Assembly (NCBI GenBank): GCA_041575955.1
Contig: JBFGLX010000001.1
Location: 1 to 42,569, forward strand
Source of the DNA: Thermoanaerobaculia bacterium
GTDB taxonomy: Bacteria; Acidobacteriota; Thermoanaerobaculia; Multivoradales; JAHEKO01
Length of the DNA: 42,569 bases
Direction: 5' to 3'
The position numbers and the translations under genes were made by a program. Under the pieces are notes generated by a model. That model ran no database searches, had not been told where the DNA came from, and saw only the letters and a program-made list of their open reading frames with translations. Shown in pieces: positions 29,562 through 40,048 of the stretch. Every line of letters starts with the position of its first letter. The stretch's first letter is position 1.

Positions 29562-29699
29562 CCTCGCCGAGCTCGTCCTCGCCGGCCCCGAGGGCCGACC
29601 CACAGCGACCCGCCCTGGGATAGAATTCCGACACGGATCAAGGGAGTGCGGCCATCGGCACCGGGTGCCTGGCATAGGCAGCCTCAGTTGTTCGATCGC

Positions 29700-30434
29700 A
29701 TGAACCAGCCCGAGCGGAAGACGAGACAGGACGCCGGGGGGCGCATTGGGGCCGTCGACGACCCGATAGGGGATCGGGACAAGCTGCGCGCCCTGGCCGC
29801 CGAGCTGGCCATCGCCGAGGAGCGGGAGCGGCGCCGGATCGCCGGCGGGCTCCACGATCAGGTCGGCCAGCTCCTGGGAATCGCCAAGGTCAAGCTCGGC
29901 GAGGCCCTCGACGCCGCCTCGGCCGCGGAGGCCGAGGAGCCGCTGTCCAAGGCCCGCTCGCTCGTCGACCAGGCGATCCGGGAGATCCGCACCCTGACCT
30001 TCGAGCTGAGCTCGCCGGTGCTCCAGGAGCTGGGCCTGGAAGCGGCCCTCGAGGGTCTGGCCGAACGGATGGCGACGCGCCACGGCATCCCCTGTCGTTT
30101 CGAGCGCGGCCGGCGGCAGCCGGCGCTCTCCGAGGAGACGGCGGTGCTGCTGCTGTCGATCGTGCGCGAGCTCTTGTGGAACGTCGCCAAGCACTCGCGG
30201 GCCCGCGAGGCGAAGCTGGCGATCGGCGCCGAGGGTGCTCGCTTGCGGATCGTGGTCGAGGACGACGGCGTCGGATTCGACGCCACGCTCGCCGGCGATC
30301 CGGTGAGCGACGGCGGCGGCCTGGGCCTGTTCGGCGCCCGCGAGCGCCTCGCCTACCTGGGCGGAACCCTCGCCGTCGACTCGACCCCCGGTCGCGGCTC
30401 GCGGGTCGTCCTGACGGTGCCGAACGCCCCATGA
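29700..30434 (+). CDS. Cytoplasmic histidine kinase (HisKA_3 + HATPase_c, NarX/DegS-type), no sensor or TM domain
   Basis: Has the H-box ERERRRIAGGLHDQVGQLL, the N-box LLWNVAKHS, and the G-boxes DDGVGFD and GGLGLFGARERL. The start is ATG 29700 or GTG 29646. The stop overlaps the response-regulator start (ATGA). Confidence 0.8.
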   Translation: MNQPERKTRQDAGGRIGAVDDPIGDRDKLRALAAELAIAEERERRRIAGGLHDQVGQLLGIAKVKLGEALDAASAAEAEEPLSKARSLVDQAIREIRTLTFELSSPVLQELGLEAALEGLAERMATRHGIPCRFERGRRQPALSEETAVLLLSIVRELLWNVAKHSRAREAKLAIGAEGARLRIVVEDDGVGFDATLAGDPVSDGGGLGLFGARERLAYLGGTLAVDSTPGRGSRVVLTVPNAP

Positions 30435-31096
30435 GCTTGCGCGTCCTCCTGGCCGACGACCATCGGATCGTCCGCGAGGGGCTCGCTGCCCTGATCGGCC
30501 GGGAGCCCGACATAGAGGTCGTCGGCACGGCTTCGGATGGCCGTGAGGCGGTGCGGCTCGCTCGAGAGGCCGCGCCCGACGTGGTGCTGATGGACGTCGC
30601 GATGCCGGGGATGAGCGGGGTCGAGGCGACGCGACAGATCGTCGCCGAGCTGCCGGCGGTCCGGGTGCTCTGCCTGTCGATGCACGTCGAGAGGAAGTTC
30701 GTCTCGGCCGTCCTCGAAGCCGGCGCCGCGGGCTATCTGCTCAAGGACTGCGCCCACGAGGAGCTGGTCGAGGCCATCCGCCAGGTGACCGCGGGCCGCG
30801 CCTACCTGAGCCCCTCGGTGGCCGCCACCGTGGTCGACGACTACGCGGCCCGCCTGTCGGGCGAGACGGCGCCGGACGCCTCGCCGCTTTCCGGCCGCGA
30901 GCGCGAGGTGCTCCAGCTGCTCGCCGAAGGCCGCTCCACCCGCGAGGTCGCCGAGCGCCTCCACCTCAGCCCCAAGACCGTCGGTAGCCACCGCGAGCGG
31001 ATCATGCGCAAGCTCGGCATCGACAGCATCGCCGGGCTGACCAAGTACGCGATCCGCCACGGCCTGACCACGGCGGATCGCAACTCGCCCCCGTAG
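30431..31096 (+). CDS. NarL/FixJ-family response regulator (REC + LuxR-type HTH)
   Basis: 221 aa. REC domain: LRVLLADDH...DVVLMDVAMPGMSG...GAAGYLLKD. HTH domain: LSGREREVLQLLAEGRSTREVAERLHLSPKTVGSHRERIMRKLG. Confidence 0.9.
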   Translation: MSLRVLLADDHRIVREGLAALIGREPDIEVVGTASDGREAVRLAREAAPDVVLMDVAMPGMSGVEATRQIVAELPAVRVLCLSMHVERKFVSAVLEAGAAGYLLKDCAHEELVEAIRQVTAGRAYLSPSVAATVVDDYAARLSGETAPDASPLSGREREVLQLLAEGRSTREVAERLHLSPKTVGSHRERIMRKLGIDSIAGLTKYAIRHGLTTADRNSPP

Positions 31097-31225
31097 GCCA
31101 CACCGGCGCGCGGCTCTGGCTCGGGAGCTTCCGGCTCCGATTTGGGGATTCCGGCCTCGCGGAATCAGTCATCGGCTGGTTGTGCCGGCCGGCCCCTTGT
31201 GCGCTTAATAGCATGAGAACCTCGC

Positions 31226-31648
31226 ATGGATACCATCAGCGTCCTGCTCGCCGACGACCACGACCTGGCGCGGCAGGCCTTGCGGGCGCTGATCGACGCC
31301 GCCGACGGGCTGCGGGTCGTCGCCGAGGCAGCGGACGGCCGCACCGCCGCCCGCCTCGCCCGCGAGCTCGAGCCCGACGTCGTGCTGATGGACGTGGTGA
31401 TGCCGGAGCTCTCCGGCGTCGAGGCGACCCGGCGGCTCACCGCCGAGCTGCCGGGCGTGCGTGTGCTGGCGATCTCGATGCACGGCGACCGGCGGTTCGT
31501 CGAGGCGATGCTGGAGGCCGGGGCGGCGGGTTATCTGCTCAAGGACGGCGCCGCCGAGGAGCTGGTCGGCGCGCTCCGGGCGGTGGCGGCGGGCAAGACC
31601 TACCTGAGCGGCGGGCTCGATCGCGCGCCTACGGACCCGAGGCCGTAA
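31226..31648 (+). CDS. Stand-alone receiver (REC-only) paralogue of the adjacent NarL-type regulator
   Basis: 140 aa. ISVLLADDH..DVVLMDVVMPELSGVEATRRL..GAAGYLLKD aligns along the full REC domain of 30431..31096. No HTH follows in any frame. Confidence 0.8.
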   Translation: MDTISVLLADDHDLARQALRALIDAADGLRVVAEAADGRTAARLARELEPDVVLMDVVMPELSGVEATRRLTAELPGVRVLAISMHGDRRFVEAMLEAGAAGYLLKDGAAEELVGALRAVAAGKTYLSGGLDRAPTDPRP

Positions 31649-32021: not shown

Positions 32022-33737
32022 ATGTCGAAGAGCATGCGCACGGTGCTACTCCTGGCCCTGGCCCTGGCCGCGGTCCTGGTCCTTGGGGACTTCGCCAGAA
32101 AGGCCGCCGAGGCCCAAGCCGTTCCTCAGCCGCGCCAACCCGCGCTCCCCGAGACGCCGGAGACGGCCGAAGAGGGCGACTGGGAGGCCGAAGACTCGGA
32201 CTCGGATTCGTCCGAGGACCAGGAGTGGTCCGGCGAGGACGACGAAGGAGAGTCCGCGCCTCGCGCCGCGGGCGCACCGGCCGGCGACTGCCGGCCAATC
32301 GACCCCAAGGCCGACTACACCGACGATCCCGATCAGCTGGCCAACAGGCTGCGGCAGGATGGCGCCTGGCCGCCCTGTGATCGGGGAGGCCTGGACAAGA
32401 GCGGCGGAAGCACCGGCCTCGACCAGATCCAGGCCGCCTTCGACATCTTTGCCTGGGACACGTTCGTCGCCCTCAACTGGCCGGCGAGCTCGCCGGGGGA
32501 GCCCGACCCGTCACGGGTGATCGGCGACGGCAAGAACGGCGACAACGAGACCGTCTGGGAGAGCTGGAAGGAGAGCTTCGAGATCTTCCTGCCCAACGGC
32601 GCAGCGCCTTCGGCCTGGGGCGATCCACGAGTGCCGCCCGCCGTCTGCCCCACCACCGATGGCCGGACCCGCCGGGTCCTGACGCAGCTCGGCAAGGCGC
32701 CGCTCGACTTCGTCCACCGGGGACCCGACGGCAACGTCCTCGACGAGTTCTCCAATCCGTTCAAGAGCGGTCCGATCATCGACCAGATGGGCCGTTTCGC
32801 GCGCTTCGAGATCGCGGTGAACGAGACGATGTTCGACCACATCGTCACCAACGTCTTGTACAGCAGGGCGGGCCAGCGGCAGTACGCCCTGGAAGCGGCA
32901 AAGCCGGGCAGCCAGCTGCCCAAGCACAGGGGCAAGCCGGCCGTGCAGTTCCCGTACGGGCGCATCGCCAAGCAAGATCCGGACGATCCCAGCGCCGGGG
33001 TCGGCTCGATCATGATCAAAGCGGGCTGGATGGACCTCACGGGCTACGACGAGGAGGTCGTGAGGACCTTCCACACCAAGACGGGTTTCGTCTACACCCC
33101 GGCGGAAAAGGAGTCGGGGATCGAGGAGCGGTGCGAGCTGAAGACGATGGGCCTGGTGGGCCTCCACATCGCCCACAAGACCTGCTTCGCTCCGCAGTGG
33201 GTCTGGGCCACCTTCGAGCACGTTGACAACGTGCCCACGCTCGATGACGTGATGCTCGACAACTTGAAAGACCGGTACAACTTCTACAAGCCGCACTGCA
33301 CGGACTGCGAGCCGGTCAACCAACCGCCCGCCGACCGGCCCTGGAACCCGAACAAGGGAGCCAAGCCCTCCCAGATCGTGCGCATCGACTCGATCCCCAA
33401 ACTGGATCCCAACGCCGAGCGCCTGAACGAGCTTTACCACCAAGCGCTCGCACGCTTGAGCCCCGATTCAGTCTGGCGGCACTACGAGCTGATCAGCGCC
33501 CAATGGCCCACCAGGACGAACCGAGACGAGTGCACGACCCTGAGATCCAACCCCGGTGGCGATCCGGCCCCCAACTTCCTCGCCAACACCACTCTCGAAA
33601 CCTACATCCAGGGGCACACGCCGCGGGTGTCGTCGAACTGCACCGACTGCCACGGCGACGCGACGACGACGGCGACCGGGACCAAGCAGAACGTGCTGCA
33701 TGCGGATTTCACCTTCCTGCTCGAGAGAGCCAACTAG
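32022..33737 (+). CDS. Secreted 571-aa protein with an acidic low-complexity N-terminal region and a single C-terminal CxxCH (putative mono-haem c)
   Basis: ATG preceded by GAGAGGA. Signal peptide: MSKSMRTVLLLALALAAVLVLG...AEAQA. An acidic tract (EEGDWEAEDSDSDSSEDQEWSGEDDEGE) follows. NCTDCH lies at nt 33639-33653, followed by DFTFLLERAN at the C-terminus. Confidence 0.75.
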   Translation: MSKSMRTVLLLALALAAVLVLGDFARKAAEAQAVPQPRQPALPETPETAEEGDWEAEDSDSDSSEDQEWSGEDDEGESAPRAAGAPAGDCRPIDPKADYTDDPDQLANRLRQDGAWPPCDRGGLDKSGGSTGLDQIQAAFDIFAWDTFVALNWPASSPGEPDPSRVIGDGKNGDNETVWESWKESFEIFLPNGAAPSAWGDPRVPPAVCPTTDGRTRRVLTQLGKAPLDFVHRGPDGNVLDEFSNPFKSGPIIDQMGRFARFEIAVNETMFDHIVTNVLYSRAGQRQYALEAAKPGSQLPKHRGKPAVQFPYGRIAKQDPDDPSAGVGSIMIKAGWMDLTGYDEEVVRTFHTKTGFVYTPAEKESGIEERCELKTMGLVGLHIAHKTCFAPQWVWATFEHVDNVPTLDDVMLDNLKDRYNFYKPHCTDCEPVNQPPADRPWNPNKGAKPSQIVRIDSIPKLDPNAERLNELYHQALARLSPDSVWRHYELISAQWPTRTNRDECTTLRSNPGGDPAPNFLANTTLETYIQGHTPRVSSNCTDCHGDATTTATGTKQNVLHADFTFLLERAN

Positions 33738-33757
33738 AAAGCGCCGGAGGAGAGGAT

Positions 33758-34450
33758 ATGAGCGACGCCGAGCTGACACGAGAGGATCTCTTCGTGGGCC
33801 TGTCATCGATACTGACCGGCCTGCCACCGGGTGAGTTGAAGCCGTTTGCCGACAAAGACATGTTGAGCCAGATCTTCTGCGACAAGGTCATCAGCGAGGT
33901 GGGCGAAGACAAGCTCGACCACCTCCTCGAGCGCTTCGCCAACCGGTTCCACGAGCTGGTCCTGGCGATCGAGGGGCAGGACTCCGACCCGGGACTCGCA
34001 GCCCTGCGCCAGGAGTTCAAGAAGCTGGAAGCCAGGAGAAGCAGGTCGCTCCACTTTTCCGAGCAGGTGACCCTCGTCCTTCAGGAAGCCAAGCGACAGG
34101 GTGACGCCGCCTGGTGGATGGGCGCCTTCGCCGGCATCCTGAGCCCCGGCGTGAACGCCCCGCGGGAGGAGCAGGAGCAGGCCGGCATCGCGGCCTCGAT
34201 CATCAAGATGTGGTACCTGGGGTCCTGGTACGCGCCGGAGCCCAAGAACGACGGGGAGCGTTACTTCGGCGGCAAGGTCGTCCCGACGCCCGCCGCCCCG
34301 GGCATGGCCTACGTCAAGGGCTGGGTCTGGAGGGTAGCGCAGACGCACCCCATGGGAGTGGCCGGACACTTCGGCGCCCTGGGGGGAGAACACGGCGACT
34401 GGGGCGACCAGCCGCGCGCATCGCTCGACGACATGGTGGAGGGCAAGTGA
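33758..34450 (+). CDS. Homologue of the small subunit of membrane-bound FAD-dependent sugar dehydrogenases (FAD-SLDH/gamma-subunit family), lacking a Tat signal
   Basis: 230 aa. ATG preceded by GGAGGAGAGGA. The N-terminal LFVGLSSILTGL matches the F..LS..LTG motif. IIKMWYLGSWY ... WVWRVAQTHPMGV ... GDWGDQP resembles the conserved WYLG / W..pP C-terminal region of the family. Confidence 0.65.
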   Translation: MSDAELTREDLFVGLSSILTGLPPGELKPFADKDMLSQIFCDKVISEVGEDKLDHLLERFANRFHELVLAIEGQDSDPGLAALRQEFKKLEARRSRSLHFSEQVTLVLQEAKRQGDAAWWMGAFAGILSPGVNAPREEQEQAGIAASIIKMWYLGSWYAPEPKNDGERYFGGKVVPTPAAPGMAYVKGWVWRVAQTHPMGVAGHFGALGGEHGDWGDQPRASLDDMVEGK

Positions 34451-34453
34451 ACC

Positions 34454-36535
34454 ATGAGTGACATGCGTGATCCGAAGCACGAGGAGTACGACGTGGTGAT
34501 CGTGGGCGCCGGCATCGCCGGCGGGCTGGTGGCGCTGGAGCTGGCCCGGAACGGCAAGCGCGTGCTCATCCTGGAGGCCGGTCGGTACGGCTATGAAGGC
34601 AAGACGCGGCGGGCGGAGGACGCCAAGCTCCCGCTGCCCCCCGATCGCGCGGAGTACATGGAGAACTTCTTCATGGCGACCGCCAAGACTCCGAACGCGC
34701 CCTATCCGCCGCTGCCCTCGCCGGAGCCGCTGGACCCCCAGCCCGATCCGGCGCACGAGCACGTCCCGAGGGCGACGAATCTCGCGAGCAACGATTCCGT
34801 GTTCCGACACAAGGACCAGAGCTATCTGACCTACGAATACGGCTCGAGGCCCTACAAGAGCGGCTACGAGCGCGTCGGCGGGGGCACCACCTGGCATTGG
34901 TCGGCCACGGCCGTCAGGCTGTTCCCCAACGACTTCCGGATGCAGGACGAGTACGGCGACGAGGGGCGCTTTTCCGACGGCATGGAGAACTGGCCGGTCG
35001 GCTATGACGACGTGCTGCCTTTCTACAACCGGGCCAACCGCCTGATCGGCGTGGCGGGCAGCCGCGAGGTGGACGAGGAGCTGGGCCTGCCGTTCGACGA
35101 GGACTACCCCATGCCGCCGGTTCCGAAGACGCTGGTGGACCAGGCCTTCGAGGCGGCGAACGGCCTGGAGATCGACGGCGACGGCGAGGTGAGGGTCACG
35201 ATCACGCCCCAGGGCCGCAACACGATCCACTACCCCGACCCCAAGCTCGCCAAGGGCGATCCGGCCCTCGAGCGGGACCTGATCGGAGTGGAGCGCCGGG
35301 TGTGCGCGGGCAATACGAACTGCATTCCCATCTGCCCGATCCAGGCCAAGTACGACGCCACGGTGACGCTCAACGACGCCCTGGACACCACCAACTCCAG
35401 CGGCGAGAGCATGGTCGAGATCCTGCCCCAGAGCGTTGCCGAGAAGGTGCTCGTCGACCCCAACGGCAGGGTCGAAGGCATCCAGTACCTCCAGTGGGAG
35501 AAGGAGCCGGGGGACGCGCCCCGCGTGCCCAAGGTGGCCAAGGGAAAGATCTACGTGCTGGCGGCCCACGCCATCGAGAATCCGAAGCTGCTGCTCAACT
35601 CGGCGTCGGACGCGCTTCCGCAAGGCGTCGCCAACAGCGGTGGGAAAAGCCACGACAACGTCGGCCGGTACCTGATGGACCACGTGATGTACCTGACCTG
35701 GGCCCTCACCAGGGACCCGGTGTGGCCCTTCCGCGGGCCGGTCGCCACCTCCGGCATCGAGACCCTGCGCGACGGACCCTTCCGTCGCCACCGTTCCGCC
35801 TGGCGTATCGAGATCGGCAACGAGGGCTGGCAGTGGGCGAAGGGCGACCCCTACACGTCGGTCATCGACTTCGTCGACGGGCTGAACTCAACCGGCATCA
35901 ACGCCGAGAACGCGCGCAACCACCGCCGCCTGTTCGGCCACGACCTCTACCAGAAGCTCAACCACGATCTCACCCGCCAGGTGCGCATGGGGTTCCTGCT
36001 CGAGCAAGACCCGGTCAGAGACATGCGCGTGATGCTCGACCCCGACGACCGCGTGGTCGACGGGCTGGGCATTCGCCGGCCGATGATCTCGGGCTACGGC
36101 ATCTCCGAGTACACCAAGCGGGGCTTTCTGTCGGCGGAGGCGGCGTCGAAGGCGATCTGGGAGCGGATGGGAGCGACGCACTATCCCGAGGAGGGCCTTC
36201 CCGACAAGCCGAACTTCGGCAGGGAGGAGTACGACAGGATGAACGCAGATGCGGGCGGTGTTGGCGGCGCCTGCTTCGAGGTCAAGGTCGGCGACGAGAC
36301 CCGCTACTTCCCCTACTACGGGGCAGGTCACATCATGGGGACCCACCGCATGGGAACCGACCCGCGAACGTCGGTGTTGAACCATCGGCAGCAGAGCTGG
36401 GATCACGACAACCTGTTCATGGTGGGGAGCGGCGTCTTCCCGACGACGGCCACGGCCAACCCGACGCTCACCATCGCCGCCCTGGCGCTGATGGCGGCCG
36501 AGAACGTCCTGCACGATCTCGCCGAGCTGGGCTGA
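34454..36535 (+). CDS. GMC-family FAD-dependent oxidoreductase (catalytic subunit type of FAD-GDH/FDH/SLDH complexes)
   Basis: 693 aa. Carries YDVVIVGAGIAGGLVALELARNGKRVLILEAG, a Cys motif CAGNTNCIPICPIQAKYD (nt 35303-35335) like the 3Fe-4S site of Burkholderia FAD-GDH alpha, and a C-terminal GTHRMGTDP...VGSGVFPTTATANPTLTIAALAL. Confidence 0.9.
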   Translation: MSDMRDPKHEEYDVVIVGAGIAGGLVALELARNGKRVLILEAGRYGYEGKTRRAEDAKLPLPPDRAEYMENFFMATAKTPNAPYPPLPSPEPLDPQPDPAHEHVPRATNLASNDSVFRHKDQSYLTYEYGSRPYKSGYERVGGGTTWHWSATAVRLFPNDFRMQDEYGDEGRFSDGMENWPVGYDDVLPFYNRANRLIGVAGSREVDEELGLPFDEDYPMPPVPKTLVDQAFEAANGLEIDGDGEVRVTITPQGRNTIHYPDPKLAKGDPALERDLIGVERRVCAGNTNCIPICPIQAKYDATVTLNDALDTTNSSGESMVEILPQSVAEKVLVDPNGRVEGIQYLQWEKEPGDAPRVPKVAKGKIYVLAAHAIENPKLLLNSASDALPQGVANSGGKSHDNVGRYLMDHVMYLTWALTRDPVWPFRGPVATSGIETLRDGPFRRHRSAWRIEIGNEGWQWAKGDPYTSVIDFVDGLNSTGINAENARNHRRLFGHDLYQKLNHDLTRQVRMGFLLEQDPVRDMRVMLDPDDRVVDGLGIRRPMISGYGISEYTKRGFLSAEAASKAIWERMGATHYPEEGLPDKPNFGREEYDRMNADAGGVGGACFEVKVGDETRYFPYYGAGHIMGTHRMGTDPRTSVLNHRQQSWDHDNLFMVGSGVFPTTATANPTLTIAALALMAAENVLHDLAELG

Positions 36536-36551
36536 GAGGAAGGAGAGCTGG

Positions 36552-37469
36552 ATGCGATTGGATCGACGCACGAATCAGAGCTTCGCCACCCGGATTCTCG
36601 GGCTGATCACCTGCGGCGTGGTCCTGCTCGGCGGCTGGGCGGGCACGCGCGGGGCGGCGCTGGCGGCGGAGCCGGCGCCCGCCGGTGACGTCTGCCCCTT
36701 GTCCACGCCACCGGTCGACTACGAACCGGAGCCGGTGGAGCAGGAACAGGACCGCATCTTCATGCTGCTCGCCTACGCCGTGGTGTACAAGGACTGGCAG
36801 ACCGAGAGCTGGCCGCCGAGAGGCTCGGACGGGCCGCGCGCGCGCGGCTACAACATCGGATCGGTGCTGGTAAACGCCGAGACCAAACGGCCCGTCTGCT
36901 GGGCGCGCAACAACGTCATCCGCCTGCTCAACGGCACCCAGCACGGCGAGGTCCGCCTGATCACGAACTACCTGCACAACAACCGACATACGACCAAGGT
37001 GGGCGGCCACAGCGGCAGCTACAAGCTCTACACCTCGCTCGAGCCGTGCGTGATGTGCAGCGGGATGATGACCATGCAGCAGCTGGCGGTCACCATCTAC
37101 GGCCAGACCGATCCGAGCTTCGGCAAGGCCCTCGAGCGGCTCGAGGTCAACACCAAGACCGCTCTGCCCCACGGCTACTGTCCCTATCCCTGGCCGGTGC
37201 GCTCCATCCTGTCGGACGTCGACTACGCCAAGCGTCTCGACGAAACCTACGACCAGCTGCGCGCGCACCACGTGAACCTCACGACCTTCCTGAAGATGGA
37301 AGAGGCTCGGCAGATCTACGCAGCGGCCACCGCCGAGCTCGAGAGCTACCAGTTGCGCTTTCCCGAGGAGAACGCGGAGGTGCTGCTGGCCGCCCAGAGG
37401 TACCTCGAGGCGGTGCCGGACCATTTTGTCAATCTCCCGTATTCCGAGGCCTGCCCGGGCGGCAGCTGA
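36552..37469 (+). CDS. Signal-peptide-bearing cytidine/deoxycytidylate-deaminase-fold zinc protein (TadA/guanine-deaminase-like core + about 130-aa C-terminal extension)
   Basis: 305 aa. N-terminus MRLDRRTNQSFATRILGLITCGVVLLGGWAGTRGAALA-AE. Zn-site motifs HGEVRL (H131/E133) and TSLEPCVMCSGMM (C166/C169), at nt 36942-37058. Confidence 0.75.
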   Translation: MRLDRRTNQSFATRILGLITCGVVLLGGWAGTRGAALAAEPAPAGDVCPLSTPPVDYEPEPVEQEQDRIFMLLAYAVVYKDWQTESWPPRGSDGPRARGYNIGSVLVNAETKRPVCWARNNVIRLLNGTQHGEVRLITNYLHNNRHTTKVGGHSGSYKLYTSLEPCVMCSGMMTMQQLAVTIYGQTDPSFGKALERLEVNTKTALPHGYCPYPWPVRSILSDVDYAKRLDETYDQLRAHHVNLTTFLKMEEARQIYAAATAELESYQLRFPEENAEVLLAAQRYLEAVPDHFVNLPYSEACPGGS

Positions 37470-37624
37470 TGGCGCCGGTCCCGTGATCACCGCGCTCACG
37501 CGGGACGGCTGACCCGAGGACCGGTCCGGATTCCCGCCGCGAGCGGCTCGAAGCTCCCCGGCCGGCGTCGCGGCTCCCTGACGGAGCCCGGCCGGCGTCG
37601 CGTCAGTTGGTATCCTGGGATCTC

Positions 37625-39244
37625 ATGACCGAAAGAGAGAAACGCTGGCTGCCGCCGCTCTCGGGCCGCGGCAGGATCGCGGGATGGATCACCTGGGCTC
37701 TGCTCCTGACGGTGCTCGGGGCCATCGTCTGGCTGCAGACCGGCGACCCGTTCGGCGACCGCGGCAGCGCCAACGCCATGACGATGATTACGACGGCGCT
37801 CCTCGTCGTGATCTGGCTGGTCTGGTTCCTGCTCGGCAGCGGCCAGGTCTGGTGGCTGCGGCTCGTGCCGCTGGTCCTGGTCGTCGCCGGGGGCTGGGCG
37901 TTCTCCACCTTCTTTCGCTTCGAGGAGGTTTCGGGCGACTTCCGGCCCCGCTTCGTGCCGCGCGCGGCGGAGAAGCCCGACCGCCGGCTGGAGCCGCCGG
38001 CCGCGACCGGCGCTGCCGGCGTCGACCTCGCGAGCACCGGCGGGCACGACTTCCCGCAGTTCCTGGGGCCGGGGCGCGACCTGGTGGTCGACGGCGTCGA
38101 GCTGGCCCGCGACTGGCGCGCGCGGCCTCCGGAGCCGCTCTGGCGGCAGCCGATCGGCGCCGGCTGGTCGGGCTTCGCGGTGGTCAACGGCTACGCGTTG
38201 ACCATGGAGCAGCGCGGCGACCACGAGCTGGTCACCTGCTACGACGCCGAGACCGGAGCGCTCCGCTGGGCGCATGCCACCGAGACCCGCTTCGACATGC
38301 CGGTCCCCGGCGCCGGTCCGCGCGCGACCCCTACCGTCGACGACGGACTGGTCTACGCGCAGGGCGCGACCGGCCGGCTGCTGGCGCTCGACGGCGCCAC
38401 CGGCGCGGTGGTGTGGGAGCGGGATCTGCTGGCCGAGTTCGGCATGAGCGCCGAGCAGGAGGCCGCGCAGCTCCCCTATGGGCGCTCGGGCTCGCCGCTG
38501 GTCGTCGACGACCTGGTGATCGTCCCGGGTGGCGGCCCGAGCGCCGAGCGGCGCGCGTCGCTGGTCGCCTACCACAAGAGGACCGGCGAGAAGGTCTGGG
38601 AAGGGGGGCGCGAGCAGATCAGCTGCAGCTCGCCGGCGGTCGCCACGCTCGGGGGCGTGCGCCAGGTGCTGATCGTCAACGAGTCGAGCGCCAGCGGCCA
38701 CGACGTCGAGACCGGCCGGGTGCTCTGGAGCTTCCCCCGCAAGGGGCGCTCGAACGCCGACGCCAACGTCTCCCAGGCGGTGCCGGTGCCGCCGGACAAG
38801 GTGTTCCTGTCCAAGGGCTACGCGGTCGGCGCCGCGCTCGTCCAGCTCGTCCCGAACGGCGACGGCACCTTCGAGGCCGAGGAGCTCTGGCAAGACTCCC
38901 GCGTGATGCGCACCAAGTTCACCAACGTCGCCATCCGCGACGGCTACGTCTACGGCCTCTCGGACGGGATTCTCGAGTCGATCGAGCTCGCCACCGGCGA
39001 GCGCATGTGGAAGGGCGGCCGCTACAAGCACGGCCAGGTGCTGCTGGTCGGAGACCTGCTCCTGGTGCTGTCCGAGTCGGGCGAGCTGTTCCTGGTCGAG
39101 GCGACGCCGGAGCGCCCGAACAGCGTCCTGGCCAGCTTCCAGGCCCTCGACGGCAAGACCTGGAACACCTTCGCCCTCTACGGCTCCCGCCTGCTGGTGC
39201 GCAACGGCCAGGAAGCTGCCTGCTACGAGCTGCCGCTGGTCTGA
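37625..39244 (+). CDS. Membrane-anchored PQQ-like (BamB/PQQ_2) beta-propeller repeat protein
   Basis: About 3 N-terminal TM helices are followed by repeated units: ETGALRWAH, DGLVYAQGATGRLLALDGATGAVVWE, TGEKVWE, ETGRVLWSF, DGYVYGLSDGILESIELATGERMWK. ATG 37625 chosen; TTG 37607 is possible. Confidence 0.8.
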   Translation: MTEREKRWLPPLSGRGRIAGWITWALLLTVLGAIVWLQTGDPFGDRGSANAMTMITTALLVVIWLVWFLLGSGQVWWLRLVPLVLVVAGGWAFSTFFRFEEVSGDFRPRFVPRAAEKPDRRLEPPAATGAAGVDLASTGGHDFPQFLGPGRDLVVDGVELARDWRARPPEPLWRQPIGAGWSGFAVVNGYALTMEQRGDHELVTCYDAETGALRWAHATETRFDMPVPGAGPRATPTVDDGLVYAQGATGRLLALDGATGAVVWERDLLAEFGMSAEQEAAQLPYGRSGSPLVVDDLVIVPGGGPSAERRASLVAYHKRTGEKVWEGGREQISCSSPAVATLGGVRQVLIVNESSASGHDVETGRVLWSFPRKGRSNADANVSQAVPVPPDKVFLSKGYAVGAALVQLVPNGDGTFEAEELWQDSRVMRTKFTNVAIRDGYVYGLSDGILESIELATGERMWKGGRYKHGQVLLVGDLLLVLSESGELFLVEATPERPNSVLASFQALDGKTWNTFALYGSRLLVRNGQEAACYELPLV

Positions 39245-39325
39245 CCTTCTCGAAAGGGGACGGGCCCAGGGGGTTGACGGCGGCCGGTTTGACGCTACGA
39301 TGGCGCCCCTGTTGCGGGAGCCGCC

Positions 39326-40048
39326 TTGGTCGTCAAGAAGATCGCAGCGTTCGATTTCGATCCCGGCGTCATCGTGGCCGGCAAGTACGAGATCGTCAGC
39401 CGGCTGGGGACCGGCTGGGAGGGTGAATCGTACCTGCTGCGCGAGCGCTCGACCCGCATCGAGCGGGCGGGAAAGTTCTTCTTTCCGCACCGCAATCCCG
39501 GCGACAGCTCGGCGCGGCGCTACGCCCGCAAGCTCCACAAGCTCGGGCGCTGTCCGATCATCATCGGGTACCACACGCGCGAGCGGGTCCGCTTCGACGG
39601 CGCGCTGGTCACCCTGCTGGTCTCCGAGTATGTAAGCGGCGAGCCGCTCGGCGCCTTCCTCGAGCGGCAGCCCGGCGGCCGGCTGCCGCCGTTCCAGGCG
39701 CTGCACCTGCTCCACGCCCTGGCCGCGGGCATGCAGTGCGTCCACCACCGCCGCGAGTACCACGGCGACCTGCACGAAGACAACATCATGGTCGACCGGT
39801 TCGGGCTCACGTTCGAGCTCAAGATCCTCGATCTCTTCAACCGCGGCCCGTTCAGCCGGGAGCGCGCCCAGGACGACCTGTGCGACCTGATCCGGCTCTT
39901 CTACGACGCCCTCGGCGGCCAGCGCCACTACGCCGCGCAGCCCCCGGCGGTCAAGGCGATCTGCCGCGGGCTCAAGCGCACGCTGATCCTGACGCGCTTC
40001 CCCTCCGTCGCCCGCCTGCTCGAGCACCTCGAGAGCCTGAGCTTCTGA
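39326..40048 (+). CDS. Small protein-kinase-like fold protein (atypical; Kdo/WaaP- or RIO-like size)
   Basis: 240 aa. Has a Gly loop (LGTGWEGESYL), a Lys (RAGKFF), the catalytic loop HGDLHEDNIMV, and ILDLF in place of DFG. TTG start. Confidence 0.65.
   Translation: MVVKKIAAFDFDPGVIVAGKYEIVSRLGTGWEGESYLLRERSTRIERAGKFFFPHRNPGDSSARRYARKLHKLGRCPIIIGYHTRERVRFDGALVTLLVSEYVSGEPLGAFLERQPGGRLPPFQALHLLHALAAGMQCVHHRREYHGDLHEDNIMVDRFGLTFELKILDLFNRGPFSRERAQDDLCDLIRLFYDALGGQRHYAAQPPAVKAICRGLKRTLILTRFPSVARLLEHLESLSF

Follow-up and report, generated by a model that had tools for sequence, protein, structure and literature searches.

A predicted Sec-exported, TadA-like zinc deaminase from Thermoanaerobaculia and its apparently undescribed bacterial family

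What would a deaminase of the cytidine deaminase (CDA) fold be doing behind an export signal, at the end of a run of sugar-type dehydrogenase genes? To our knowledge, the CDA-fold deaminases that have been studied in depth, whether of the TadA, cytosine or guanine type, are all cytoplasmic, and the bacterial deaminases we know to leave the cell are essentially toxin heads. The question is raised by one gene in a stretch of 42,569 nucleotides from a Thermoanaerobaculia bacterium (contig JBFGLX010000001.1), the whole of which is hereafter called the window. A preliminary description of this DNA had reported an exported protein with an intact zinc-deaminase core. It had also speculated, from the position of the gene next to one for a GMC oxidoreductase, that the two proteins share a pathway. 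The open reading frame was found as reported (Table 1), and gene calls on 12 other contigs give a near-identical protein (P0001). The source genome is a marine metagenome-assembled genome, and the window sequence was matched only by the DNA runs of a marine metagenome. A Pfam scan of ten long open reading frames elsewhere in the window was uninformative.

Table 1. Coordinates, in the window, of the deaminase gene, its elements and the genes upstream.
Feature	Position	Strand	Basis
Whole ORF, predicted 305-aa exported TadA-like zinc deaminase	36552..37469, incl. stop codon	+	ORF read
Shine-Dalgarno-like AGGAAGGAG	36537..36545	+	Read from sequence; 6 nt 5' of ATG
Predicted Sec signal peptide (aa 1-38) or uncleaved signal anchor, possible cleavage ALA|AE	36552..36665	+	n/h/c layout in sequence
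C48, one of four non-catalytic cysteines (C48, C116, C210, C301)	36693..36695	+	Co-occurrence table
Deaminase core, aa about 61-220: helix 1, beta 1-5, zinc-binding helices	36732..37211	+	AF2 model, pLDDT 92.4
H131-G132-E133, zinc-ligand His and catalytic Glu	36942..36950	+	Invariant in 113-sequence alignment
P165-C166-V-M-C169, two zinc-ligand cysteines	37044..37058	+	C166 and C169 in 113/113 sequences
Family-specific helical C-terminal subdomain, aa 221-305, PYxxAC tail at end	37212..37466	+	AF2 helices aa 224-237, 250-264, 271-287
Upstream three-gene module, judged functionally untied to deaminase	32022..36535	+	
Exported 571-aa protein, conserved C-terminal CxxCH	32022..33737	+	
230-aa protein (small subunit)	33758..34450	+	
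GMC flavoprotein	34454..36535	+	

Any claim of export depends on the start codon. The strong Shine-Dalgarno-like sequence at the first ATG supports the annotated start, and hence the presence of the signal peptide. In-frame GTG or TTG codons at positions 23, 50 and 62 do offer an alternative, in which the protein is a cytoplasmic TadA-like paralogue with a true start downstream and an apparent signal peptide that is never translated. Such an annotation artefact is extremely improbable and was rejected. A strong Shine-Dalgarno sequence precedes the first ATG only, and the downstream candidates either fall in the hydrophobic h-region or cost the conserved C48 and the helix-1 residues E65 and D67. 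Furthermore, N-termini with a signal or a lipobox occur independently in homologues from many phyla. The NCBIfam equivalog model for TadA (NF008113) gives the protein 26.8 bits, far short of its cut-off of 150, and matches aa 158-201 only, which places the protein outside TadA; other family members reach 30-47 bits. The preliminary description had allowed that orthology to a known cytoplasmic deaminase, combined with a wrong start, would overturn its reading. The ribosome-binding site, the family-wide signals and the low equivalog score all point the other way.

The N-terminus has the layout of a signal peptide or anchor, as first described. Arginines at R2, R5, R6 and R14 form the n-region, the h-region extends from I15 to G31 with a 10-residue Kyte-Doolittle maximum of 2.5, and A36-L37-A38 lie directly before A39-E40. 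A hydrophobic N-terminal segment is present in 184 of 202 complete homologues (~91%), and about half of them (106 of 202) have a lipobox; LITC at aa 18-21 of the window protein makes a poor one. The window protein is a CDA-fold enzyme with an intact zinc site for which export is supported. Tat export from the arginine pair was considered and set aside, since the pair lies nine residues ahead of the h-region, the S/T-R-R-x-F-L-K pattern is absent and most homologues have short signals of the Sec/SPII type. The Sec route is the more likely one. With a pI of 5.5 and a net charge of about -7.5, the mature protein is acidic, which disfavors tight binding of a polyanion yet is compatible with small substrates.

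The catalytic core places the protein in the superfamily of CDA-fold zinc deaminases. Pfam PF00383 matches at 34.5 bits (cut-off 25, E = 2e-8), and the HxE and PCxxC motifs and the alpha/beta/alpha fold are all present. The AF2 model has a five-stranded core, in which PCxxC is followed by beta-4, a long loop and beta-5. The motifs HGE (aa 131-133) and PCVMCSG (aa 165-171) had been read correctly and are invariant across 113 homologues, with glycine at the middle HxE position in 73% of the family. The replacement of the usual H(A/C)E by HGE, singled out in the preliminary description, is indeed present; it is not unprecedented, as yeast cytosine deaminase (PDB 1uaq) also has HGE. Foldseek matches the model to TadA, ADAT2, guanosine deaminase and yeast cytosine deaminase with TM-scores of 0.7-0.79 normalized to the target, and a family profile finds TadA/ADAT2 in the PDB at E = 2e-14. 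Assigning the substrate base by motif was tried and abandoned because the signs conflict: the HGE triad is that of yeast cytosine deaminase, whereas EPCxMC and YG..DP..G are TadA-like. In addition, W214 of the window protein replaces an arginine that 97% of the family has in a PYPR motif, and the specificity of the protein may therefore differ.

Comparison with characterized relatives defines what is distinctive. The best profile and fold matches are TadA and ADAT2 (PDB 1wwr, 2b3j, 1z3a, 3dh1, 7nz7), which in alignments share with the window protein LEPC(A/V)MC, a strand-2 asparagine (N120) and YG..D(P)..G after beta-4. However, TadA is a cytoplasmic protein of about 150-170 aa with HAE and a single terminal RNA-binding helix, whereas the window protein, at 305 aa, begins with a predicted signal peptide, has HGE and additional cysteines, and is extended by about 85 aa with three main helices. 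The compact core of the CDA fold is also found in yeast cytosine deaminase Fcy1 (PDB 1uaq, 1p6o) and in plant guanosine deaminase (PDB 7dbf), with Foldseek E-values of about 1e-7 to 1e-6. Fcy1 shares the H-G-E triad, and the substrates of the two enzymes, a free base or a nucleoside, are of the kind suggested for the window protein. Both are nevertheless cytoplasmic and close the active site with a C-terminal helix or tail; a signal peptide and an equivalent of the C-terminal subdomain are absent from both, and the TadA-like D187-P188 motif is absent from Fcy1. A weak Pfam lead to the Bd3614-like deaminases (PF14439; 14.2 bits against a cut-off of 38.5) was also followed. Although these and the window family both count as offshoots of the TadA/Tad2 clade, the identity was rejected on architecture and motif: Bd3614-like proteins have HAExN and start with a globular domain (Iyer et al. 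2011, PMC3239186), and the window protein has HGEVR and only about 20 aa between signal peptide and helix 1.

Two further features set the family apart. The preliminary description had counted a C-terminal extension of about 130 aa; in the AF2 model beta-4, the loop and beta-5 belong to the core, which reduces the truly extra part to about 85 aa. These three main helices and the tail are conserved across the family, and PDB matches span the core only (TM-score about 0.45 normalized to the query). A profile of the 85-aa subdomain returned no match at E <= 0.001 from a set of 5.8 billion proteins; family members were missed as well, because the domain is too short for a database of such size. 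The other feature is the set of four non-catalytic cysteines, C48, C116, C210 and C301, which are present or absent together across homologues. This pattern suggests that they form two disulfide bonds, with C48-C301 and C116-C210 as candidate pairs, which would fit an oxidizing compartment.

At E <= 1e-30 the family comprises about 186 clusters at 50% identity from many phyla, with members in Acidobacteriota, Proteobacteria, Desulfobacterota, Chlorobi, Bacteroidota and Planctomycetota and in Helicobacter and Pseudomonas. Among the culturable carriers are Pseudomonas corrugata DSM 7228 (L057), Zobellia amurskyensis (L030), Hymenobacter gummosus (L028) and Desulfobacter vibrioformis (L016). Identity among its sequences is 40-55% across phyla, and in the tree the window protein groups with members from Acidobacteriota and Gammaproteobacteria. 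Neither NCBIfam nor PADLOC has a model covering the family, and a literature search for exported or periplasmic deaminases, and for a link between STING and deaminases, yielded no description of it. Judged from sequence, the window protein appears to belong to a small, undescribed bacterial family that adds an exported variant to the deaminase superfamily, and not to be a mis-started TadA.

Does the genomic position reveal the function? The deaminase ATG lies only 16 nt past the stop codon of the GMC gene, and this gap suggests that the two are co-transcribed in the window genome. A consensus promoter and terminator scan gave background levels. It is on such grounds that the deaminase could be taken as a periplasmic small-molecule step in the GMC pathway, acting for instance on an amino-sugar, pterin or aminoglycoside-like compound oxidized by the flavoprotein: the two genes share a strand and no terminator is evident between them, the arrangement is retained on all contigs of the window organism, and the 571-aa partner of the GMC protein is exported. 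The surroundings of the relatives speak against it. By tblastn, the GMC protein, the 571-aa partner, the PQQ gene and the downstream genes are absent from all 80 loci of deaminase relatives. All three genes of the trio are missing near the closest homologue (54% identity, locus L081), and the trio is conserved without any deaminase in other genomes (L086, L087). The juxtaposition is therefore specific to the window lineage, and the shared pathway previously suggested from co-operonic position is not supported. In addition, neither the GMC protein nor the small subunit has an export signal, so a compartment common to them and the deaminase is not indicated, and the conserved pocket and associations of the deaminase family point to nucleobase substrates. 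A role in the GMC pathway is thus very unlikely.

Those associations come from fusions and neighbors across the family. Family members are fused to an S1/P1 nuclease (P0177), a Lamin-tail domain (P0248, P0252), a ComEC-type MBL (P0122) and RIP N-glycosidase-like domains (P0168, P0173, P0191). Of these seven fusion proteins, the five with assessed N-termini (P0177, P0248, P0122, P0168 and P0173) all have N-terminal signals. Within the clade of the window protein, the deaminase gene has an ExeM/NucH-like secreted nuclease as neighbor (L005, L007) and, in L002, a nucleoside 2-deoxyribosyltransferase-like gene 46 nt downstream. Elsewhere in the family, the neighbors include an adenosine deaminase (L047) and an NTPDase of the CD39 type that has an export signal (L073). 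Together, the fusions and neighbors point to substrates derived from nucleic acid rather than a dehydrogenase intermediate. They are single or few events, some of them in distant clades; the neighbors at most family loci are uninformative, and among 42 same-strand neighbors outside the STING-linked clade discussed below no Pfam family was found twice. Some family members also have weak matches to the SNAD4 Pfam model. Functional analogues exist in animals, where secreted AID/APOBEC-like deaminases (SNADs) and extracellular adenosine deaminases (ADGF/ADA2) have signal peptides and act outside the cell. Both are eukaryotic; SNADs belong to the AID/APOBEC branch and ADA2 has an amidohydrolase (TIM-barrel) fold, and we know of no homology between either and the window family beyond the superfamily level.

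An exported nucleic-acid deaminase inevitably recalls the polymorphic toxins. The deaminases of these systems (MafB19, DddA, SsdA and other clades) leave the producing cell, as the window protein may, and Sec-dependent examples without immunity genes, some released through Sec/T2SS, have been described (Iyer et al. 2011, PMC3239186). The window protein could be a toxin, released through Sec/T2SS, that edits or mutates DNA or RNA in bacterial competitors or in eukaryotic grazers, with co-translational export sparing the producer and making an immunity protein unneeded. Its TadA-like core is of the nucleic-acid-editing type, most of the exported deaminases known are toxins, and in some family members the deaminase is joined to a domain of toxin type (RIP or Fic). 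In most respects, however, the family does not resemble such toxins, in which the deaminase forms the C-terminus of a large delivery protein that diverges rapidly and usually has an adjacent immunity gene. Its members are stand-alone small enzymes or, in half of the family, membrane-tethered lipoproteins, and their sequences are well conserved across phyla rather than hypervariable. Pfam finds no second domain in the window protein, where the signal peptide alone precedes the deaminase domain; translocation, receptor-binding and pre-toxin domains are absent from a mature protein of about 230-265 aa. There is no small open reading frame between the deaminase stop codon and the next gene in the window, and no recurrent small neighbor in the 80 loci, so that the earlier statement that delivery domain and immunity gene are both lacking is borne out. 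Plasmids and phages yielded no match to the mature protein by tblastn at 1e-8, which leaves a mobile toxin or defense cargo unsupported, and the acidity of the protein is a further argument against this reading. A secreted toxin is accordingly unlikely.

A different kind of conflict is suggested by one branch of the family. STING genes, encoding TIR-STING or TM-STING, adjoin the deaminase in 16 of 80 loci, with a lipoprotein deaminase within about 35 nt. These loci, 14 of which were placed in the tree, form essentially one Bacteroidota clade. A full CBASS operon surrounds the deaminase in L048, where the genes encode CD-NTase, E2, a 146-aa membrane protein, the deaminase and TIR-STING, and several STING-linked loci are in defense islands that also contain type III CRISPR, PDC-S01 or IetA. 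From this setting one may envisage an envelope arm of nucleotide immunity, in which periplasmic modification of nucleotide signals or foreign nucleic acid, such as deamination of exogenous cyclic dinucleotides, prevents STING from being triggered, the window gene being a stand-alone copy. For the window gene itself this is quite unlikely. Its protein falls in a different clade, and the window has no STING, TIR, cyclase, TM146 or PDC-M50A-like gene, the neighbors being metabolic or regulatory. PADLOC lacks a model for the deaminase, and a periplasmic enzyme would need to be coupled to a cytoplasmic STING. A bolder proposal covers the whole family. Its members would be an unrecognized class of extracytoplasmic nucleobase-editing enzymes that work with secreted nucleases on nucleic acid or nucleotide signals in the periplasm or outside the cell. 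The Bacteroidota members would be wired into STING/CBASS operons as envelope-side immunity, where they might, for instance, inactivate exogenous cyclic dinucleotides or tag foreign DNA ahead of its entry into the cytoplasm, and the window gene would be a stand-alone representative. Taken as a whole, this proposal is speculative and improbable.

The explanation that fits best, and that is held with slightly more confidence than doubt, is that the window protein is a Sec-exported zinc deaminase of an undescribed family, about half of which has a lipobox, and that it acts on extracellular substrates derived from nucleic acid beside secreted nucleases. Its catalytic core would be nearest to the TadA/ADAT2 branch of the CDA fold, with the addition of a helical C-terminal subdomain of its own. 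The mature enzyme would begin at about A39, reside in the periplasm or on the cell surface and probably be stabilized by two disulfide bonds. Its chemistry is expected to be canonical, with a zinc ion held by H131, C166 and C169 activating water and E133 shuttling the proton, so that the exocyclic amine of a nucleobase would be hydrolyzed and ammonia released. The likeliest substrates are bases, nucleosides, nucleotides or single-stranded polymer from extracellular nucleic acid. Alongside secreted nucleases and phosphatases, such an enzyme may serve salvage and nitrogen gain, or may alter foreign nucleic acid or nucleotide signals. The place of its gene behind those of the GMC dehydrogenase would be incidental.

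A compact, probably disulfide-stabilized TadA-like enzyme that is routinely exported would open a new compartment for nucleobase metabolism. Possible roles include the processing of environmental DNA or RNA, the recovery of nitrogen and the modification of nucleotide signals, and the spread of the family over many phyla lends them weight. Adenine base editors are built from TadA relatives, and a secreted TadA-like scaffold that is stable by nature and has an additional subdomain facing the substrate could be of practical interest in that field. That one clade is so tightly linked to bacterial STING effectors was not expected and may provide a testable entry to the interface between CBASS-type immunity and the cell envelope.

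The 305-aa protein encoded downstream of the GMC flavoprotein gene is very probably an exported, active zinc deaminase of a distinct family. Its open reading frame is exactly that of the preliminary description, and the ATG lies 16 nt beyond the GMC stop codon. The N-terminus is organised like a Sec signal, with a positive n-region (R2, R5, R6, R14), a hydrophobic h-region of 17 residues (I15-G31; maximum 10-residue hydropathy 2.5) and a c-region carrying A-L-A at 36-38 followed by A39-E40. The signal-like N-terminus originally claimed is thus present, and export signals are also family-wide. Since other in-frame starts fall inside the h-region or delete conserved residues, a mis-called start is very unlikely and, as an alternative account of this N-terminus, essentially excluded.

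The zinc-deaminase core is intact, as had been claimed: HGE occupies aa 131-133 and PCVMCSG aa 165-171, and Pfam PF00383 scores 34.5 bits (E = 2e-8) against a curated threshold of 25. An AlphaFold2 model of the mature part, for which 113 homologues served as input, is confident (pLDDT 92.4, pTM 0.92). In it, beta-5 of a five-stranded deaminase core is followed at aa 221-305 by three main helices, one short helix and a tail. The helical C-terminal extension described earlier is therefore real in the model, but its size is not about 130 aa: the extra part starts only past beta-5, which leaves a family-specific extension of about 85 aa. Nor is HGE unique, as yeast cytosine deaminase (PDB 1uaq) has the same triad; the likeness to TadA lies instead in the motifs LEPC(A/V)MC and YG..DP..G. 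Across the family, the middle residue of HxE is most commonly G (179, with A in 56).

In the homologue alignment, H131, G132, E133, C166 and C169 are invariant, and a family-specific invariant set includes E65, W82-Q83, G99, N101, N120, R135 and D187. Four arginines (R98, R135, R196 and R214) are invariant or near-invariant in a protein that is otherwise often acidic, a sequence pattern that would fit the binding of a phosphate-bearing substrate. Position 214 is R in 97% of family members and W in the window protein; together with a mature pI of 5.5, this substitution may mean that the substrate specificity of the window protein is shifted.

Sequence, profile and fold searches agree on the closest relatives of the core. 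The placement by profile searches that had been proposed puts TadA and ADAT2 nearest among solved structures (profile E about 2e-14), followed by mycoplasma tRNA deaminase, plant guanosine deaminase, yeast cytosine deaminase and guanine deaminase. Yet the window protein is not TadA, as it scores 26.8 bits with the NCBIfam TadA equivalog model, whose cut-off is 150. PDB matches are limited to the 150-aa core (TM-score 0.7-0.79 by target, about 0.45 by query), and structure searches gave no PDB counterpart of the C-terminal subdomain. The NCBIfam and PADLOC collections contain no model that fits the family, and when the literature was searched in full text for exported or periplasmic deaminases, nothing relevant emerged. 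A weak Pfam match to Bd3614 was a false lead: Iyer et al. 2011 (PMC3239186) describe Bd3614 proteins as having HAExN, a globular domain at the N-terminus and an rRNA methylase encoded nearby, and the window protein differs from them in motif and architecture.

The family is small but real. Among 5.8 billion proteins searched, 214 relatives of 260-320 aa were found with nearly full-length coverage and 40-59% identity, annotated, where at all, as 'nucleoside deaminase' or 'TadA'; among 1.84 billion cluster representatives, searching with a profile gave 186 clusters at E <= 1e-30. Scanning one genome per GTDB species yielded 80 loci, from Gammaproteobacteria, Acidobacteriota, Desulfobacterota, Chlorobi, Bacteroidota, Planctomycetota, Myxococcota, Verrucomicrobiota, Helicobacter, Pseudomonas and others. 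A hydrophobic N-terminal segment is present in 184 of the 202 members with a complete N-terminus (91%) and a lipobox-like L-x-[GAS]-C in 106 of the 202; several of the exceptions look like mis-called starts or Tat signals. C48, C116, C210 and C301 are all present in about half of the family and all absent in the rest, the simplest reading of which is two putative disulfide bonds, as expected for a protein folding outside the cytoplasm.

The preliminary description had speculatively placed the enzyme in a GMC oxidoreductase pathway as a periplasmic small-molecule deamination step, a reading for which local gene order is the sole support. In the source organism, a marine-metagenome MAG, the order is constant: a 571-aa exported protein, a 230-aa small subunit, the GMC flavoprotein and the deaminase. 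However, none of the 80 deaminase loci gave a tblastn match to the 571-aa protein, the GMC protein, the PQQ-propeller protein or the kinase. P0002, the closest homologue (54% identity), is encoded by a lone gene with opposite-strand genes on either side, and none of the trio genes, small subunit included, was found at its locus by tblastn. In most other genomes the deaminase gene looks monocistronic, with gaps >100 nt or opposite-strand neighbours. The trio also occurs without the deaminase, followed by unrelated genes, in a Thermoanaerobaculia MAG and a Tara Oceans contig, where identity is 41-46% for the 571-aa and GMC proteins and 27-30% for the small subunit. In all three trio loci, no signal peptide was found on the GMC protein or the small subunit, which gives no support to a shared compartment either. 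Such a pathway is improbable, and the GMC link of the deaminase is most likely incidental.

As for the trio itself, the product of its first gene is exported, is about 460-570 aa long and has a conserved CxxCH in its C-terminal part, possibly a haem-c site; the second gene encodes about 180-230 aa without Pfam matches, and the third a GMC flavoprotein without signal peptide. About 90 nt past the deaminase stop codon, a GGCTCC-CTGAC-GGAGCC hairpin lies inside a repeat pair (37557-37602); it may serve as a terminator lacking a T-tract, or as a regulatory site ahead of the PQQ-propeller gene. The upstream flank encodes a HisKA_3 histidine kinase, a LuxR-type response regulator and a stand-alone receiver domain, and the downstream flank a membrane-anchored PQQ_2/BamB-like beta-propeller and a small Ser/Thr-kinase-like protein; these flanking genes might regulate the cluster.

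Features of the deaminase gene, its surroundings and related loci
Feature	Location	Strand	Details
Deaminase ORF	36552..37469	+	305 aa
Shine-Dalgarno, strong, AGGAAGGAG	36537-36545	+	5' of deaminase ATG
Trp at codon 214	37191-37193		PYPR motif, between beta-4 and beta-5
Trio module	window 32022-36535; L086:3988-7860; L087:4138-7977		conserved in three loci
16-nt direct repeat CCCGGCCGGCGTCGCG	37557-37572 and 37587-37602		flanks hairpin
Flanking genes of cluster	29646-31648 (upstream); 37625-40048 (downstream)
Nucleoside 2-deoxyribosyltransferase-family gene	L002:10733-11179	+	Marinacidobacterales; 46 nt downstream of deaminase; window protein's clade
ExeM/NucH-like extracellular nuclease	L005:7907-9694; L007:7883-9667	-	Acidobacteriota; window protein's clade
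Psychroserpens locus L048	L048:7903-12044		CD-NTase, E2, 146-aa membrane protein (PDC-M50A), deaminase, TIR-STING
STING-adjacent loci			L029, L044, L045, L048, L052-L055, L059, L066, L067, L069, L070, L074, L075, L080

Fusions and neighbours offer clues to the substrate. An S1/P1 nuclease is fused to the deaminase in P0177, which has a signal peptide; P0248 and P0252 carry a Lamin-tail domain, typical of secreted bacterial nucleases; and the lipoprotein deaminase P0122 is joined to a ComEC/Rec2-type metallo-beta-lactamase domain. P0168, P0173 and P0191 combine a RIP N-glycosidase-like domain with the deaminase (signal peptides read in P0168 and P0173), and P0214 joins the deaminase to Fic, without signal. 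N-terminal signals occur in five of the eight multidomain members, in the sequences read. Among the neighbours, the ExeM/NucH-like nucleases are signal-bearing (NCBIfam E = 2e-41) and encoded divergently from the deaminase, a CD39-type NTPDase with export signal lies near the deaminase in L073, and an adenosine deaminase gene in L047. The 42 same-strand neighbours outside the STING-linked clade have no Pfam family in common, and each informative fusion or neighbour stems from one event or a few; taken as a whole, these fusions and neighbours consistently indicate extracytoplasmic nucleic acid and its breakdown products.

At 16 of the 80 loci, mostly Bacteroidota with one Puniceicoccaceae, a TIR-STING or membrane-anchored STING gene (recognised by Pfam PF10137 and PF20300) lies within about 35 nt of the deaminase on the same strand, upstream at some and downstream at others. 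Of these deaminases, 14 were placed in a neighbour-joining tree, where they make up essentially a single clade; N-termini were read for 14, and 10 of those carry a lipoprotein signal. Five of the loci add a 146-aa membrane protein matching the PADLOC candidate PDC-M50A. The deaminase of L048 lies within a complete CBASS operon, a cyclase gene is also present in L055, and other loci adjoin type III CRISPR, PDC-S01 or IetA genes. Literature searches found no paper describing this STING-deaminase linkage.

The reading modestly favoured here is that of an exported deaminase acting on a nucleic-acid-derived substrate. The window protein would be exported via Sec and then cleaved near A38/A39, or retained by its N-terminal anchor; it would fold with two putative disulfides, bind zinc in the periplasm and hydrolytically deaminate a base (adenine, cytosine or guanine) in a free base, nucleoside or nucleotide, possibly also in a single-stranded polymer or cyclic dinucleotide. 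The basis for this is a CDA-fold zinc deaminase whose catalytic residues are all present, family-wide export signals and a conserved extra subdomain, a GMC link that is not conserved, and repeated association with secreted nucleases and nucleotide enzymes. The RIP and Fic fusions would also be compatible with a Sec-released toxin, of which there are precedents (PMC3239186), but lipoprotein tethering, well-conserved sequences, missing delivery domains and immunity genes, and the failure to find plasmid or phage copies make this unlikely. Similarly, the STING-linked clade suggests a defence-related role in the envelope, but the window locus gives no such hint: there are no STING, TIR or cyclase genes in the window and its protein falls outside that clade, so such a role is quite unlikely.

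The fold and chemistry of the window protein are already known. No description was found, in the literature and profile libraries searched, of a family that joins routine export (in most cases as lipoproteins), HGE within a TadA-like core and a conserved C-terminal subdomain with nuclease and STING associations. There is a small chance that the family would represent a class of extracytoplasmic nucleobase-editing enzymes with a second role as an envelope-side part of STING-based immunity.
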